A stretch of 64,000 nt of DNA from an uncultured Candidatus Saccharibacteria bacterium (GTDB lineage Bacteria > Patescibacteriota > Andersenbacteria > UBA10190): positions 2,297 through 66,296 of the forward strand of contig CAZLVG010000001.1 of NCBI GenBank assembly GCA_964562905.1, in the 5' to 3' direction. The notes under the pieces are model-generated. The model saw nothing but the letters and a program-made list of their open reading frames with translations, searched no databases and was not told the origin of the DNA. This document shows, piece after piece, positions 1,233-39,917 of this stretch. A program made the translations under genes and the position numbers. Positions within the stretch are counted from its first letter, which is position 1; each line of letters opens with the position of its first letter.

Positions 1233-2654
1233 TTACACGTCATCCTCTCCCTGCGGCAGCGGCTTGGTGCCCAACAAACGTCCCAACAACTCATTGACAT
1301 CGCCCCGGCTATAACACCTGAACCTTATTTCGTAATGGTTCTTCTCCGGGCTGAAACTGACACGGGCATTATATCCGTAGCGGTCTTCCAACTCTCCACT
1401 GTATTTGGACTCAAAAGGAGTACGGCCGCCCCGGCTGCGGCGGGCGGAGTCGTCCACCTCCATAGCTCTCTGAATACGCCTGGCTCGCGTCTCCGCCTTG
1501 CGCACAGTCAGTCCTTCAGCTACCAGATGGGAATAAAAGCGTTTTTGTTTCTCTTCGTCGGGAATCATAAGTATGGCCCGGGCGTGACCGGCCGAAATCA
1601 CGCCGTCAGTCAGTCCCTGGCGAATAACTTTCGGCAACTGCAATACGCGTAGCATATTAGTAATGCTGACCCGGCTGCGCCCGATACGCTCTCCTATTTC
1701 ATGATGCGTCATGCCGTACTCATCGCACAACCGTTTATACGCCATTGCCTCCTCCACGGGATTCAAGTTTTCCCGCTGAATATTCTCTATCAGGGCCATT
1801 TCCAGCCGCGTGGAGTCCTCCCCCACCCCCCGGCGCACCACGCAGGGTACGCGCTCCCAGCCCAACTGCTGGGCAGCTTTTAACCTTCTCTCACCGGCCA
1901 CCAGCTGATATTTATCACCATGCCTCCTGACCACCAGCGGCTGCAAAATGCCGTGCTGGGCGATAGAATCCATCAGCTCCTGCATCTCCGCTTTATCAAA
2001 GTGCCGCCGCGGCTGGGTAGGATTGGTTTCTATGTCCCTAATTATCACGCTCCGCACCTTCTCCTCGTGCTTATCCCAGGCAGCGCCCTTCCTATCCTCC
2101 GAGCTGACCACGTTATCAAGCAGCTCTTCATCCGGCTGCCGCGCGCTGCCGGCCGGGGTGCCTTCACCCTCTTTTTCCCGCTCTTCCCCTCCTCCGGAAG
2201 TTTCCTCTTCCTCGCCGCCATCCACGGTCAAAGGGGTTACTAACGGTTGTTTGGGCCGTAATGTTTTCTCTTCTTCCGCTCCCGCTTCCGTTCCGCTGTC
2301 CTCCTTCTCTTCCTCCTTCGTCCGCGTCTGCACGTCCTGCATCTTACGTTTCGCCGGACTGGACTTTCCCGACCGGACGGAAGTCCCGTCTCTTGCCTCG
2401 CTCTCCGCTTGCCCTGACGCCGGGGACGAATCCTCGCCCACCACGCTTACCCTCTGTCCTGCGCCTTTCTTATTAGCAGCAGCTTCCCCCTCTCCACCGT
2501 TCTCCTCTCCACCAGTGTGTCCGCTGCCGGCCGCGTCATTTGTCCGTAGCTCCTTTTCCTCTTCCTCAAGGCGATCCACTACGTCATCGGCGCTGTCCAC
2601 GCCCAGCCTGGGAATAAGAGACTTAAGTCCTCCTTTGAACATTCTTTTTCTCAT
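1233..2654 (-). CDS. parB: ParB/Spo0J partition protein with long acidic low-complexity N-terminal extension
   Basis: ParB box LQPLVVRRHGDKYQLVAGERRLKAAQQLG and an HTH region. About 200 aa of Gly/Glu/Ala-rich sequence precede the ParB domain. It overlaps parA by 4 nt. Confidence 0.85.
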   Translation of the reverse strand: MRKRMFKGGLKSLIPRLGVDSADDVVDRLEEEEKELRTNDAAGSGHTGGEENGGEGEAAANKKGAGQRVSVVGEDSSPASGQAESEARDGTSVRSGKSSPAKRKMQDVQTRTKEEEKEDSGTEAGAEEEKTLRPKQPLVTPLTVDGGEEEETSGGGEEREKEGEGTPAGSARQPDEELLDNVVSSEDRKGAAWDKHEEKVRSVIIRDIETNPTQPRRHFDKAEMQELMDSIAQHGILQPLVVRRHGDKYQLVAGERRLKAAQQLGWERVPCVVRRGVGEDSTRLEMALIENIQRENLNPVEEAMAYKRLCDEYGMTHHEIGERIGRSRVSITNMLRVLQLPKVIRQGLTDGVISAGHARAILMIPDEEKQKRFYSHLVAEGLTVRKAETRARRIQRAMEVDDSARRSRGGRTPFESKYSGELEDRYGYNARVSFSPEKNHYEIRFRCYSRGDVNELLGRLLGTKPLPQGEDDV

Positions 2655-3415
2655 GAATATAAATTTAATAATTCTTCTGAAAGATACTGATAAGCTTTAG
2701 CCCCGCGGGACCTGCCCGCGTAGTTAATTATACACTGCCCCGCGCTGGGCGCCTCCGCCAGCTCCGTATTGCGCGGAATAACGCTTTCAAACACGTGGCC
2801 GGGAAAGGTCTTGCGCACTTGGCGCACCACTTTTCTGGCCATAGACACTCTCCTGTCATACATAGTCAGTAGCGCCCCTAAAACCTGCAGCCGGGGGTTT
2901 AGGTGCGACCGCACCAGCTCCACCGTCTGCAAGAGCTGCTCCAGGCCTTCCAGCGCCAGATATTCGCACTGCACGGGTATGAGCAAACGATCGGCCGCCA
3001 CCAAGCCATTAATGGTCAGCAAACCCAGGCTGGGAGGACAATCCACCAGGATAAATTCAAAATGATCCTTCAACGGCTTAAGAGCCCGGCGCAGCCGATA
3101 TTCCCGGTAAGGCCGCTGCATCAGCTCTATAGCCGCGCCGGCTAAGTTAGGAGTGGAAGCTATCAGATTAAGATTCTGAACAGCGGTGGGCTGCAGGGCC
3201 CGCAAAGCACTCTCCTGGCCCGTCAGCACCTCGTACAAAGTGACAGACTCGGCCGACAGCCGCACCCCTACCCCGGTAGTAGCGTTAGCCTGCGGATCCA
3301 GGTCAATGACCACGGTGGGATAGCCGGCTGCCGCTAAGTAGCCACCCAAATTAACGCTGGTGGTCGTTTTGCCCACGCCCCCCTTCTGATTAGTGATGGC
3401 TACCACTTCCGCCAT
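2651..3415 (-). CDS. parA: ParA/Soj family ATPase
   Basis: Deviant Walker A motif VAITNQKGGVGKTTTSVNLG, typical ParA length (254 aa), and operon arrangement with parB. Confidence 0.9.
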   Translation of the reverse strand: MAEVVAITNQKGGVGKTTTSVNLGGYLAAAGYPTVVIDLDPQANATTGVGVRLSAESVTLYEVLTGQESALRALQPTAVQNLNLIASTPNLAGAAIELMQRPYREYRLRRALKPLKDHFEFILVDCPPSLGLLTINGLVAADRLLIPVQCEYLALEGLEQLLQTVELVRSHLNPRLQVLGALLTMYDRRVSMARKVVRQVRKTFPGHVFESVIPRNTELAEAPSAGQCIINYAGRSRGAKAYQYLSEELLNLYS

Positions 3416-36074: not shown

Positions 36075-37181
36075 TCAGACGCGCCGAAGCTTCTGCTCGT
36101 AACGAACCCTTCGGCAGCGCTGAAAACCGTATTTATGCAACCGGCAGTCGCCGCCCCGGCAAGCCTTCTGGCACTCGTCCTTGGTACGCTGGCCCAAGAA
36201 GGAAGTGTCTAGGGACATTTTGACCAGACTGGCCACCGTCTCCAGCGACAGGCGGGTAACGGGGTACTCAAAGTGCTCCGTGCCGTTGTGCAGCTGGCCG
36301 TAAGGCTTGGCGTAATACCATCGGCCTTCCCGGTACGGTACGCCCTCGCCGCGCAACTTCTCCCAGTCGCGCTCCCGGACGTCGTCTTGAGCTTCCTGCT
36401 CGGCAATATTCACCGCCTGGGCCAAGTCGTCCAAGTTAAGGTTGGCTTTGTTGTTGGTGAAAACGTGAATATGACCGTCAGGATCCTGCTGTACCACGAC
36501 GTCGGCTTTAAACCAGGCGCGGGCGGCCGTACTCACGTGCCAGTTGTGGTCCTCGTCGGCGGGAACCGCCACCACTACCAGCCGCAGCTCTTTTCCTTTC
36601 GGGCCATTTATGGTCTCGTGTCTTCCCTGCCGGCGAATGAGCTGCGCCGCCCTGTGAAACACTTCCTGGTCCCACACAAACATCCTCACCAGGTCCTTCA
36701 GGTGCTCAATCACCCTGTGCTGCTCTGGCTCCGTGAAGGTGCCGCCGCTGGCTTCGGCCAGGTGGCGCCGCCAGCGAAACAGCAGGCGCGTCAAGGAATA
36801 TACGTCATAAGGGTGCCGCGCTTCCACGGCCTCCCTGCGCCCAGGATTCATCTGCCCGCCGGTTTCAGCAAAGTTGCAGAAAGCCACCATCTGCCTCCAC
36901 CAGGGGGCTTTCTCAACCAGGTTGAGGGCCTTGGCTACCAGCGCCAGGCAACAGCCCTTCTTGCGTCCTTCTCCCGTGTCAGGGTCGGGGTGCTCATCAA
37001 AAGGACCGCCGCCCACCCCCAGCCACAGCCTCCCGTCGGGACAGTATTTGTCCAGGAAAGCTCTGTCTCCGTATTCCTCTACGGCCACTAAAGCCGCAAC
37101 TTCCTCCAGGTGAGGGTAAGCATGCAGCTCCACTGGCACATTCTCCGCGGCCACCGAGATTTCACAGGTCACCGTGTCCAT
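36075..37181 (-). CDS. Hypothetical protein with C-terminal Cys cluster (zinc-ribbon-like)
   Basis: No family recognised. Contains LGVGGGPFDEHPDPD and C-terminal CQKACRGGDCRLHKYGFQRC. Confidence 0.4.
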   Translation of the reverse strand: MDTVTCEISVAAENVPVELHAYPHLEEVAALVAVEEYGDRAFLDKYCPDGRLWLGVGGGPFDEHPDPDTGEGRKKGCCLALVAKALNLVEKAPWWRQMVAFCNFAETGGQMNPGRREAVEARHPYDVYSLTRLLFRWRRHLAEASGGTFTEPEQHRVIEHLKDLVRMFVWDQEVFHRAAQLIRRQGRHETINGPKGKELRLVVVAVPADEDHNWHVSTAARAWFKADVVVQQDPDGHIHVFTNNKANLNLDDLAQAVNIAEQEAQDDVRERDWEKLRGEGVPYREGRWYYAKPYGQLHNGTEHFEYPVTRLSLETVASLVKMSLDTSFLGQRTKDECQKACRGGDCRLHKYGFQRCRRVRYEQKLRRV

Positions 37182-37319: not shown

Positions 37320-37868
37320 TCATCTTGTCAAGGGAGGCACCTCGCTGGGCGCTTTCCGCGGTCCAGGCTGCTGGCTAACCGCGTACCAATGCTTGTACAC
37401 ATCAGACTTAACCTTCAAAGGTCCATTAATATGCCGCAGATGCAGCTCCACGTTCTGGCTGCCGGCTGTGTTTAAACCTAAAGAGCCGGTGTTAGTAAGC
37501 AGCCGTTCCATAATGGTTTCGTTCACCGTTATATCTGTAATGTAGTCGTGACGCACCGTAACCATACGCTTATGCAACAGCCCCTCTCTGGACATAACGC
37601 GGCTGTCAGTAACGGCGTAATGCACGAAGAAAGTCAGGTAGAGCGCCGGCACCACCATCAAAACGGCCACCAGAAGTAACAACACGCCCAGCAGCGGGAT
37701 CCAAAAGGACAGCGCTACCGCCGCTCCTGCCAGTAACAACACTGGCAGCCACCAGAAGACAAACAGATACCTGCCGCTTACGCCGAAAGTGCGCAACACT
37801 TTCTCACCCGGCATCAGAAATTTTTTCCAGTACCGTTCGTGCCGTTGGTGGCCCATACGGTAAAGCAT
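37320..37868 (-). CDS. Bacterial PH-domain (bPH_2/YdbS-like) membrane protein
   Basis: Two N-terminal TM helices followed by a PH-like beta domain. Architecture typical of the YdbS/YdbT family. Confidence 0.55.
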   Translation of the reverse strand: MLYRMGHQRHERYWKKFLMPGEKVLRTFGVSGRYLFVFWWLPVLLLAGAAVALSFWIPLLGVLLLLVAVLMVVPALYLTFFVHYAVTDSRVMSREGLLHKRMVTVRHDYITDITVNETIMERLLTNTGSLGLNTAGSQNVELHLRHINGPLKVKSDVYKHWYAVSQQPGPRKAPSEVPPLTR

Positions 37869-37990
37869 ATAAGGCTTACCCCTTCAAGCCAAGGGCGTCC
37901 CGCCGGTCTTAAGCCAGCCTATCTCCGCCTGGACCGGGACACGGGGACAGCCGGAGCGCGAGTCCCACGTATATAACTTTCTTTTTTTGA

Positions 37991-38458
37991 GTGAGGGAGC
38001 ACAATAGAAACATGCCCACCCTGGCTTACAACCGCCGGGCTAAATTTGACTACCACCTCCTGGAAACACTGGAGGGAGGGCTGGCGCTGCTCGGCACTGA
38101 AGTAAAATCGGCTAAAGCCGGCAATCTAAGCCTGCGCGGAGCTTTCGTGACCATACACCATAATGAAGCTTACCTTACCAACGCCACCATACCGCCCTGG
38201 CAGGTAAAAAATACGCCCCGCGGCTACGATCCCGCCCGCCCGCGCAAAGTACTGTTGAAAAGAAGTGAGCTTAAGCACCTTATCGGCAGTAAACAATCAA
38301 AAGGCTTGACAGTTATCCCTATAAGCGTTTATACTAAAGGACCGCGCGTAAAGCTTGAACTGGCACTGGCCCGGGGAAAAAAGAAGCATGACCGCAAACT
38401 GGAGAAAAAGGAAAGAGACATCCGGCGCGAGGTGGCCAGAACGTTGCGCGGAAAATAG
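37991..38458 (+). CDS. smpB: SsrA-binding protein
   Basis: Motif NRRAKFDYHLLETLEGGLALLGTEVKS. Length 155 aa. It lies immediately upstream of the tmRNA. Confidence 0.95.
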   Translation: MREHNRNMPTLAYNRRAKFDYHLLETLEGGLALLGTEVKSAKAGNLSLRGAFVTIHHNEAYLTNATIPPWQVKNTPRGYDPARPRKVLLKRSELKHLIGSKQSKGLTVIPISVYTKGPRVKLELALARGKKKHDRKLEKKERDIRREVARTLRGK

Positions 38459-38859
38459 GGGCGCGTTATGGCCTCGACGGGTTGTTGTTTACCCAATCTG
38501 CGTGCTGTGTGCTGTGAGCCGCTCACATAAATAAAAGGGTTCACCAAAGTTCAAGTGCGAACTTATTTAAGCGGGTGAAGACGGCTTTGGCCCCTTCATT
38601 TGCTACCGCTGCCGCTTAAACACCGGCAGCCATCGCCTCGCTCCTGCCGCCGGGCGCGAGCAGCGGTGCCAGATCAGGCGGATAGGGCGGTTTGGTTTGA
38701 GAGACAAGCTGCCTGACTTAAAGCACATTCTCCTCACGTGCGCCTGAAGTCTTTGCCGGTCTGTTGCTGCCCGCGTACGTAAAACTGCCAGACCGGCTAC
38801 GCGCGTAGATGATTGCGTATCCACATCCCGCACGCGAGTTCAACTCTCGCCGCGTCCAC
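38459..38859 (+). ncRNA. ssrA: tmRNA (ssrA)
   Basis: The 5' end GGGCGCGTTATGGCCTCGACGGG matches the tmRNA 5' consensus. The 3' tRNA-like end has T-arm GCGAG-TTCAACT-CTCGC. Acceptor 3' strand CGCGTCC pairs with 5' GGGCGCG, including the G3:U70 alanine identity pair. Discriminator A is followed by CC. An internal reading frame ends ...FATAAA-TAA, resembling a proteolysis tag. Confidence 0.85.
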
Positions 38860-39416
38860 CGACCTTCGCTCTCCATCTTTGGCGGAGGGTGCCGTCCACA
38901 GCCTCCGAGCTTTAGCAAGGAGCGACGGACGGCTGCAATAATTGCATGCGGCAATATGTTTATGTATTGCGGAATAACAGAAAAGATCAGCAAACAGATA
39001 GCCTGAATAAAAGGCTGCAGCAACATAACCAAGGTGCGTTCCAGCAACAACAGATAGTAGGCCTTGGTACGTCCATTGGTTCTGCGGATTCAGAACAAAG
39101 AAGGAAGCGCTAATCTTCGAAAAATATCTTAGGGGCGGTTCAGGCGCCATGTTCAGGTATAGGCATTTAGCGCCAAAACAGTAACCCCTAGGCTTCGCTT
39201 TCCGTAAGCCAGCGGCTAGTTTTGACAAATCCAGCCCTAAGCCGAATGAAGCTTAAGATGAACGATAACATAACGGAGATACTGGCATTTCCTGGAAAAG
39301 GAGAGTTTTTTCGCTTTGCCTCCCGGTCGGCTTTCCACAGCCTCCCGGCCGGCAGCGCGCGAGATTTTTCAAGCCCGCGACTATAATACCCAGGACATTT
39401 AAGTTACGGTTACTGT

Positions 39417-39917
39417 GTGTTTAAGTTCTGCCCGCGCTGCCGGAGAAAAATACGGAAAAGGCGCGACCGCTACGAATGTGCGAGCTGCGGGTTTTGTCTT
39501 TTTGTTAACCCGCCGGCCGCTGTGGCCGCCATAATTTACGACAACCAAAGACAAGTTCTGCTAACGCGAAGGGCCCGCTCCCCGCGCCGGGGATATTGGG
39601 AACTGCCGGGCGGTTTTGTTAACACCGGCGAATCGGCGGAGGAGGCGCTGCGGCGCGAAGTGCGCGAAGAGCTGGGAATATATTTGAAGTCCAGCCGTTA
39701 TCTGTGCTCCCGCCCTAATGTGTACCGCTACCGGAAAATGACTTACCGCCCGTTGGACCTGTTCTTCACCGCGCCGCTGCCGCCGGCAGCTAACATTGCC
39801 CCAGACCAAAGTGAGGTGTCCCGCTGGCGCTTGTTCCCCCCGCCGGAGGTGCCCTGGTCCAACATAGCCTTTAAATCCTACCGGCCCGTGCTGCGCCGCT
39901 GGTTCCAGCCGTCTTAA
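39417..39917 (+). CDS. NUDIX hydrolase with N-terminal zinc ribbon
   Basis: CPRC...CASCG zinc ribbon, then NUDIX box GGFVNTGESAEEALRREVREELGI. Confidence 0.85.
   Translation: MFKFCPRCRRKIRKRRDRYECASCGFCLFVNPPAAVAAIIYDNQRQVLLTRRARSPRRGYWELPGGFVNTGESAEEALRREVREELGIYLKSSRYLCSRPNVYRYRKMTYRPLDLFFTAPLPPAANIAPDQSEVSRWRLFPPPEVPWSNIAFKSYRPVLRRWFQPS

Follow-up and report, generated by a model that had tools for sequence, protein, structure and literature searches.

The locus described here lies in a 64,000-nt stretch of DNA from an uncultured Candidatus Saccharibacteria bacterium (assembly GCA_964562905.1, contig CAZLVG010000001.1, positions 2,297 to 66,296 of the forward strand; the whole stretch is referred to as the window). 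It comprises the smpB gene, the transfer-messenger RNA (tmRNA) gene ssrA and an interval of 555 bp (38862-39416), which separates ssrA from a gene for a NUDIX hydrolase. An earlier note on this DNA had pointed to an unannotated tmRNA gene, followed by a gene-free stretch of ~550 bp with an 11-bp direct repeat, and had proposed that this stretch might be the remnant of an integrated element or might hold another small RNA. The length given for the interval was accurate, but the interval is not devoid of genes, since it contains the remnant of a structured leader and a frameshifted GIY-YIG nuclease gene. We consider it likely that the locus consists of smpB, ssrA and then a dead copy of a small cassette inserted at tRNA and tmRNA genes, in keeping with the idea of a decayed insertion behind the tmRNA gene.

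The smpB-ssrA locus and the interval downstream of it

The smpB gene (38012..38458, + strand) encodes an SsrA-binding protein of 148 aa when read from its ATG codon; a GTG codon in the same frame (37991) offers an alternative start. The protein matches the Pfam SmpB family (E 4e-46) and NCBIfam PRK05422 (161.9 bits, cutoff 130), and shows 63-77% identity to proteins from metagenome-assembled genomes (MAGs) of Candidatus Andersenbacteria, a lineage of the candidate phyla radiation (CPR)/Patescibacteria. The smpB stop codon, TAG, occupies positions 38456-38458, and the tmRNA gene therefore begins at the very next base.

A comparison with Rfam performed using Infernal placed a one-piece tmRNA gene at 38459..38861 (+ strand). 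The match to RF00023 covers the full model (positions 1-374 of 374) and scores 97.5 bits (E 8e-37), compared with a gathering score of 47. An nhmmer profile of CPR tmRNAs gave 288.9 bits, this copy being among the 12 used to build the profile. The acceptor stem is formed by 5' GGGCGCG with 3' CGCGUCC and contains a G3:U70 pair, as in tRNA-Ala, and the T-arm, GAGUUCAACUCUC, aligns to RF00023. The gene ends with ...ACC-G, and CCA is thus incompletely encoded. The tag frame (38557..38619, + strand) opens with the resume codon GCG (38557), comprises 20 codons (ANLFKRVKTALAPSFATAAA) and closes with TAA. With its Ala resume codon and Ala-rich C-terminus, it is kept in both frame and sequence in the relatives, e.g. 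ANLFSRVK(T/A)AFAPSFAPAFA. The pseudoknot regions are covered by the Rfam alignment, with low posterior probability and several non-standard pairs.

ARAGORN, which calls tmRNAs in many related loci, reported none at 38459-38861 when run on the window. This is a false negative, because the gene is detected by Infernal, and annotation pipelines based on ARAGORN would leave it unannotated, as the earlier note had found it. These results confirmed that the window carries an ordinary, genuine tmRNA gene. It shares with the known tmRNA/SmpB system (RF00023) the full-length one-piece form, the G3:U70 pair, the T-arm, a tag open reading frame (ORF) ending in ...AAA and the position beside smpB. No essential difference was found; the points to note are the incomplete CCA, the lineage-specific 20-residue tag and the failure of ARAGORN. 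Inside smpB, towards its 3' end, a sigma-70-like site (TTGACA, 18 nt, TATACT; 38306..38335, + strand) can be proposed as the ssrA promoter on the strength of its consensus match (11/12 positions); it is the sole promoter-like site in the region 37850-39500.

Six-frame translation, tblastn and Pfam PF01541 revealed a GIY-YIG nuclease pseudogene at 38946..39184 (+ strand). Its reading frame is interrupted once. The first half lies in frame 1 (38946-39035; MRQYVYVLRNNRKDQQTDSLNKRLQQHNQG) and the second in frame 3 (39038-39181; VPATTDSRPWYVHWFCGFRTKKEALIFEKYLRGGSGAMFRYRHLAPKQ; stop codon 39182-39184), with the frameshift at 39036-39037, directly after ...HNQG; both tblastn and six-frame translation assigned the halves to different frames. 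The frameshift-corrected product of 79 aa scores 39.6 bits against PF01541 (curated cutoff, 22.6 bits), compared with 53-60 bits for intact members of the family, and is 41-51% identical to most of the aligned intact members (35% in one case). A second lesion, the in-frame loss of 3-4 codons near 38990, deleted the 'YIG' strand: the alignment has a 4-column gap in the pseudogene exactly at the Y.G of all 12 aligned relatives, and the near-invariant Tyr and Gly are missing. The Tyr of the GIY motif (Y6) and the catalytic residues R23, H27 and E59 are retained and align with invariant columns.

The pseudogene is preceded by a truncated cassette leader (38862..38945, + strand), which was recognized by alignment, by its fold and by R1, a covariance model built from 22 leaders. 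It starts directly after the tmRNA end with ACCTTCGC, in line with the (A)C(C)TTCGC motif that opens the leaders of the family, a start common to the window and to the loci L105, L108, L127 and L162 (L numbers denote loci of relatives). The remnant contains a hairpin (38863-38870 / 38881-38888) and a composite hairpin, counted as the hairpin 3 of the family, formed by GCCGTCC (38891-38897) and GGACGGC (38927-38933), with the loop core GAGCTTTAGCAA, and its fold has a z-score of -3.26. It aligns with the leaders of L125, L143 and L162. Compared with canonical leaders, hairpin 2 and the linker are entirely gone and most of the segment spanning hairpins 1 and 2 is missing; ~45 nt found in the leaders of L125 and L143 are absent. 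The R1 match (38850-38970; 20.1 bits, E ~6e-5, 66 model positions deleted) was obtained with the filters off in a search of 801 nt. No match was returned by R1 with default filters over the whole window, and nhmmer profiles of the canonical leader, its 5' part and hairpin 3 did not detect the window leader.

The remnant ORF starts at 38946, on the same strand as the tmRNA gene and downstream of its end (38861), which is the placement seen throughout the cassette family described below. The copy in the window has decayed: its leader is truncated and lacks the full set of hairpin 2, linker and long-range stem, it carries one frameshift, and both the YIG motif and the right-hand repeat are missing. 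A search for a direct repeat of the tmRNA 3' end after the ORF gave none (p = 0.88 and 0.96).

The direct repeat described in the earlier note is present in two copies, but at slightly different positions and with a greater length. The 11-mer CCACAGCCTCC starts at 38896 and 39335 (and not at 38893 and 39329), with a spacing of 439 bp, and extends to a 12-mer, TCCACAGCCTCC, starting at 38895 and 39334. Copy 1 (38895..38906, + strand) is part of the 5' side of a leader hairpin, and the homologous positions read ACCGCAGCCTC in L125 and TCCGAAGCCTC in L162. Copy 2 (39334..39345) lies within the distal spacer. The similarity of copy 1 to the tmRNA 3' end is real, but modest (CGTCCACCGACCTTCG vs CGTCCACAG-CCTCCG, 13/16 matches, p ~0.03 from shuffles), and fits the habit of the cassette family of imitating the RNA terminus; copy 2 has no such resemblance (p 0.9, shuffles). 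Copy 1 is a conserved arm of a leader hairpin and no attachment site. With copy 2 placed in 231 bp lacking homologs, the proposal that the repeats represent the ends of an element did not hold. A third exact 11-mer at 37023 and a copy with 1 mismatch at 36824, both within a minus-strand gene coding for 368 aa, were rejected as parts of the feature and are considered coincidental.

A family of GIY-YIG cassettes at tRNA and tmRNA genes

A profile search identified more than 7,800 relatives of the GIY-YIG protein, typically of 78 aa, with PF01541 as the sole domain apart from the occasional overlapping T5orf172 (PF10544). Those with a source name come mostly from Patescibacteria. The family profile matches the UPF0213 structures 1zg2 (E 1.8e-10) and 1ywl (1.3e-6), as well as the SLX1 structure 6seh (4e-3). 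An intact cassette of ~0.35-0.45 kb is composed of a leader and a stand-alone 78-aa GIY-YIG ORF of the SLX1/UPF0213 branch. It begins at the nucleotide following the 3' end of an RNA gene (discriminator or CCA), on the same strand.

The linkage with RNA genes was assessed in an unbiased set of 80 metagenome loci, fetched with a 6-sequence alignment and scanned with ARAGORN and a tmRNA profile; counts were restricted to the 61 loci with 300 nt or more upstream. In 53 of these, an RNA gene on the same strand, for a tRNA in 34 loci and for tmRNA in 19, was found to end 65-350 nt before the GIY start, the commonest distance being ~122-126 nt. CPR genomes contain ~45 tRNA genes and one tmRNA gene per ~1,000 genes, and linkage in <5% of the loci would be expected by chance. 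The association extends beyond the CPR: the GIY gene is located 68-89 nt after tRNA-Ser in a 'Bacteroidetes' MAG and also on a contig of 3.6 Mb. Nearest neighbours among the proteins share their RNA type in 42 of 68 cases (18.5 expected). The protein clades track the 3'-terminal sequence of the neighbouring RNA gene and not its identity; one clade, for example, occurs after tRNA-Ala, tRNA-Gly, tRNA-Ile and tmRNAs, all ending with CACCA.

The comparison of the same junction in relatives, which the earlier note had recommended, showed that the cassette is present, broken or absent depending on the genome. The tmRNA gene likewise follows smpB in the closest relatives. Behind it, an intact GIY-YIG ORF is located 120-170 nt from the tmRNA, on the same strand, in L001, L003, L004, L006, L009 and L016, a leader with a broken GIY ORF is found in L007, and no GIY cassette is present in L002, L005, L013 and L018. 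Filled and empty genomes are interleaved with respect to SmpB and tmRNA identity. The second decayed post-tmRNA copy, in L007, indicates that decay is a recurring fate. In the syntenic locus L162, the order is ArgRS ... SmpB - tmRNA - 132-nt leader - intact GIY - infC, and the GIY protein encoded there (P0106), which of the intact homologs tested is the closest, shows 49-51% identity to the window remnant. The tmRNAs of L002 and L005 are 96% identical and their SmpB proteins 91% identical, while no sequence can be aligned immediately past the tmRNA end, which shows that the 3' flank of the tmRNA gene turns over quickly. Each of these two loci carries a different simple hairpin after the tmRNA 3' end.

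The leader is mostly 65-250 nt long (~120-130 nt in the canonical form). Its conservation starts at the first base past the RNA gene, which is also where empty relatives diverge. The canonical order is CTTCGC, hairpin 1, GCTTCGCG, hairpin 2, an AT-rich linker, GCGAAGTGGTG, hairpin 3 with the loop RWAGCTTTAGCGAA, and the start codon. RNAalifold recovers the three hairpins, and an additional long-range stem pairs the last bases of the RNA gene and the leader start with a downstream segment. With this stem, 92.5% of alignment cells are paired, compared with 34-45% for slid controls. Both sides change in 17 of the 26 base pairs, and none of 500 shuffles reached the observed value; that it is the sense strand which folds is indicated by a conserved G:U pair. 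The long-range stem follows the RNA terminus, as illustrated by the pairs CACCACTTCGC / GCGAAGTGGTG, CACACTTCGC / GCGAAGTGTG, CGCCTTCGC / GCGAAGGCG and CAGCCTTCGCCC / GGGCGAAGGCTG. The junction complementarity has a mean of 8.6 nt (5.1 nt in shuffles) and reaches p<=0.05 in 47/66 loci. In 32 of 67 leaders, hairpin 2 has a 3' arm that repeats the RNA terminus and changes with the RNA type. Within each leader, the target terminus is represented once as a copy and twice as its complement, and these segments follow the target sequence across tRNA types.

A TTCGC trailer was found behind 31 of the 39 tRNAs that precede a GIY gene, compared with 3 of the 64 that do not, so it is a component of the cassette and not a trailer common to tRNAs in general. 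The leader model identified ~30 further leaders, all of them before GIY ORFs, and in 593 kb of mostly non-CPR SmpB loci its matches were confined to CPR loci. When the spacer and six intact leaders were compared with Rfam at a low threshold, no family was returned, HDV-like and other self-cleaving ribozymes included. The AT-rich linker was considered as the site of a promoter belonging to the cassette, and this candidate was rejected, as a sigma-70-like site is present in just 13 of 67 leaders, at inconsistent positions.

Several further features of the leaders were observed. In L162 (2357-2503) and in several tRNA-Ser-type leaders (L090, L108, L150, L151, L155), AAGGAGG(A) is located 10-25 nt before the start codon, either in the 3' arm of hairpin 3 or in the segment pairing with the tRNA end. 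The leader structure therefore appears to conceal the ribosome-binding site, and its two CTTCG and three CGAAG segments could pair with each other in alternative ways. Four tandem hairpin-3 units (AGCCGCCATAGCTTCAGCGAAGGCGGCTTTTTCAT) follow the tmRNA 3' end in L158 (215-340), and a single hairpin of this type with a T-run follows tRNA-Ser in L111; hairpin 3 thus also behaves as a repeatable, terminator-like module.

The earlier note had suggested tmRNA 3' ends as integration sites, and in intact relatives the cassettes can indeed be bracketed by direct repeats of the RNA gene 3' end. When the 100 nt following the GIY stop codon were searched in 69 loci, a copy of the RNA gene 3' end was found in 16 of them at p<=0.05 (3.5 expected). 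Nine of these repeats are near perfect (15-24 nt, spanning the region from the T-loop to the acceptor end), and three of the nine follow tmRNAs (L115, L149, L158). It is the most complete cassettes that carry such a repeat. At none of the nine sites is there a second full RNA gene. An inverted copy of hairpin 3 precedes the repeat in 4 of the 9 loci. Partial tRNA 3' fragments are also found directly before the leaders of L082, L088, L149 and L156. In these four loci (L149, 1148-1500), 75-235 nt of other sequence separate a complete tRNA or tmRNA gene from a partial copy of its own 3' end, to which the leader and GIY gene are joined, suggesting that the same RNA gene received one insertion after another. 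Tandem arrangements were seen for leaders (L087 and L106) as well as for modules. Module arrays of the form GIY - tRNA-Ser - GIY (L167, 1077-1737) and GIY - tRNA-Ala - GIY - tRNA-Ala (L114, 1031-1957) were observed, and L110 (1501-1978) contains two GIY ORFs in tandem.

Interpretation of the locus

The cassette may be regarded as a selfish element that would insert at the 3' ends of tRNA and tmRNA genes whose terminus matches its leader. Its expression would depend on read-through from the RNA gene, which is strongly transcribed, the leader might serve transcript processing or translation control and possibly the choice of target, and the nuclease would provide a DNA break or nick driving short-homology recombination into new sites. 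On this reading, which we favour, the window holds a dead copy of such an element behind ssrA.

A number of points weigh against it. Mobility is inferred from comparative patterns only: most loci have no detectable right-hand repeat, and no excision or integration junction, circular form or near-identical pair of filled and empty alleles was seen. To our knowledge, nucleases of the SLX1/UPF0213 type have no sequence specificity or recombinase activity. The lack of a cassette promoter is only suggestive, given that CPR promoters may not fit a sigma-70 scan. As regards the window itself, its leader is weak when taken alone (20.1 bits, with the filters off, and missed by the sequence profile), and the reading does not account for copy 2 of the 12-mer and the 231-bp distal spacer. 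Look-ups of the exact SmpB, NUDIX and 55-aa ORF proteins found no independent assembly covering the pseudogene; SmpB led only to a 1.3-kb contig ending within the tmRNA gene, and the other two had no records. The frameshift could therefore be an assembly error, although the deletion of YIG, being in frame, is less likely to be an artefact.

A bolder version of this reading, possible but unlikely in our opinion, is that of a new minimal mobile element of ~0.4 kb, in which a 78-aa SLX1-like nuclease would be steered to RNA 3' ends by base pairing of the leader, leaving an attachment-site-like duplication of ~20 nt. The leader could then act as RNA or as single-stranded DNA, with a nuclease that has neither a DNA-binding domain nor an integrase. 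The copy and complements of the terminus within the leader, the matching across tRNA types and the protein clades that follow the terminus all fit this version. Less radically, the leader could be a processing or translation switch, coupling the expression of the selfish gene to the maturation of the upstream tRNA.

The integrase-type island scar proposed in the earlier note, here taken as an element with a tyrosine integrase which entered the tmRNA 3' end and left the CCACAGCCTCC copies as attL and attR, is largely refuted. The 12-mer does occur twice in the spacer, copy 1 is weakly similar to the tmRNA end (p ~0.03), and tmRNA genes are known integration targets (PMC4383910). However, there is no integrase in or beside the interval, the neighbours being the NUDIX gene and infC, and a profile, short BLAST searches and local alignment found no displaced tmRNA 3' fragment in the 64 kb; the window has no match to the tmRNA end longer than 10 nt (one 14-nt stretch includes a mismatch). 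Moreover, copy 1 corresponds to a conserved leader-hairpin position in the relatives, copy 2 is unlike the tmRNA end (p 0.9), and the 11-mer occurs by coincidence in a coding gene as well. A different view is that the small GIY-YIG protein is a host housekeeping nuclease, homologous to UPF0213 and not mobile, which lies behind tRNA and tmRNA genes for co-expression or because of a role at highly transcribed RNA genes, and that the window has lost a dispensable gene. The homology to the cellular UPF0213 and SLX1 families, the constant orientation with no promoter of its own, and a structured leader, including its conserved G:U pair, which is consistent with regulation at the RNA level, are all in agreement with this view. 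We nevertheless judge it improbable, given the direct repeats of RNA gene 3' ends that bracket the cassette, the partial tRNA 3' fragments directly before the leaders of L082, L088, L149 and L156, the tandem modules, the closely related proteins that follow different tRNA types, and the patchy presence of the gene, with pseudogenes, among close relatives.

It might also be argued that the gene in the window is still functional, the frameshift being an assembly error or programmed and the missing YIG strand tolerated, as there is just one frameshift, most residues of the catalytic core are kept (the GIY Tyr, Arg23, His27, Glu59), and the organism is uncultured, with no second assembly covering the site. 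This is very unlikely in view of the in-frame deletion of the near-invariant YIG Tyr and Gly, a leader devoid of hairpin 2 and the linker, a Pfam score of 39.6 bits as opposed to 53-60 for intact members, and the decayed post-tmRNA copy in L007.

Several known systems resemble the cassettes in part. Seg proteins are phage encoded, have ~200 aa or more and possess separate DNA-binding domains; we know of no seg gene that is anchored to an exact tRNA 3' end, or that has a covarying leader or a flanking repeat of the tRNA end. The free-standing GIY-YIG homing endonucleases of T-even phages, e.g. SegB in the tRNA gene cluster of T4 (PMC2330249, PMC13096335), are similar to the cassettes in that they are intergenic GIY-YIG genes among or beside tRNA genes, selfish and patchily distributed, and degenerate when no longer spreading. 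Integrase-type genomic islands in tRNA and tmRNA genes, collected in the Islander database (PMC4383910), also target the 3' part of these genes and leave an intact gene on one side and a displaced 3' fragment on the other, as observed in 9-16 cassettes. These islands are kilobases in size and encode a tyrosine integrase, whereas the cassette has ~0.4 kb and only a 78-aa GIY-YIG nuclease; in addition, the window lacks the right-hand fragment. The UPF0213 proteins (BH0048, PDB 1zg2; EF2693, PDB 1ywl) and SLX1 (PDB 6seh) are likewise minimal GIY-YIG domains with no DNA-binding module. They are known as cellular proteins, for which no tRNA linkage, leader or flanking repeats are known to us. GIY-YIG ORFs have also been reported in non-intron insertions of CPR rRNA genes (PMC11270868), i.e. 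in the same organisms, from the same superfamily, in stable-RNA genes and outside recognizable introns. Those ORFs occupy scattered and poorly conserved sites within the 16S and 23S genes, and their spread by homing was considered improbable, while the cassettes abut tRNA and tmRNA 3' ends and have a conserved leader.

None of these nearest described systems combines a minimal SLX1-like nuclease, exact anchoring at an RNA 3' end, a leader pairing with the terminus and repeats of the terminus. No description of GIY-YIG cassettes at tRNA and tmRNA 3' ends was found in Rfam 15 or in the literature searched, the coverage of which was incomplete, so that a prior description is possible; the family is apparently undescribed. 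The annotation of the window is corrected by these results, with a real tmRNA gene that had been missed by the standard finder and an 'empty' spacer that contains a pseudogene and a leader remnant. More generally, a rule emerges for thousands of 78-aa GIY-YIG genes, mostly of Patescibacteria, the sampled ones being located at tRNA or tmRNA 3' ends behind a covarying, structured leader that pairs with the RNA terminus, and often with a repeat of this terminus bracketing the cassette. This rule helps to explain the rapid turnover of tRNA and tmRNA 3' flanks in reduced genomes and the many 'GIY-YIG nuclease family protein' annotations in them, and it tells gene callers where small ORFs and pseudogenes should be expected. 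If mobile, the cassettes would be among the smallest autonomous elements targeting tRNA genes, with a type of nuclease unknown for site-specific insertion.

The distal spacer and the NUDIX gene

The part of the interval beyond the pseudogene (39185..39416) contains CTTCGCTTTCC at 39193-39203 and the tandem repeat GCCTCCCGG(T/C)CGGC at 39318-39353. It could be an independent element, namely a small RNA, the 5' untranslated region belonging to the NUDIX gene, or what is left of a second, older leader, with the collinear repeats CTTCGCT.TCC and TCCACAGCCTCC as the traces of a partial duplication. These two repeats do link 38864-38906 to 39193-39345, tandem leaders are found in L087 and L106, and an 11-nt inverted repeat straddles the NUDIX start. 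We still regard an independent element as unlikely: the region has no match to the leader model on either strand and none to Rfam, no homolog was found in any fetched locus, and its fold (z-score -0.45) is no better than that of shuffles. The suggestion of another small RNA in the spacer was likewise not borne out, as the low-threshold Rfam scan found no known family. A second leader or an inverted hairpin-3 remnant, the latter sought with the motif of complete cassettes, was rejected as a candidate for 39185-39416, since neither the leader model nor the motif search was supportive.

An 18-mer, CCCGGCCGGCAGCGCGCG, is present exactly twice in the window, at 39344-39361, beside copy 2 of the 12-mer, and inverted at 2140-2157 (minus strand) in a gene coding for 473 aa. 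With three further copies having 3 mismatches, there are 5 matches, compared with 0.21 expected.

The NUDIX hydrolase gene (39417..39917, + strand; Pfam NUDIX, E 1.5e-24) is a flanking gene outside the cassette. Its product has an N-terminal CxxC...CxxC zinc ribbon and is weakly NudC-like, with a weak NCBIfam match to NAD(+) diphosphatase. The inverted repeat mentioned above is perfect (CCGGCAGCGCG / CGCGCTGCCGG, at 39349-39359 / 39433-39443), spans the start codon (39417) and could form a regulatory hairpin. The syntenic relative L162 has no such gene at this position, and the gene may therefore have been inserted or rearranged in the window. In L162, the intact GIY gene is followed by a 457-nt spacer (2744-3200), which contains a structured repeat of two tandem ~170-nt units. 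The motif CGCTCCACATCCGTGARGC is present in each unit, together with a strong stem (e.g. CCTCACGGATG...CATCCGTGAGG) and a hairpin, CCCCA...TGGGGGCCCC.

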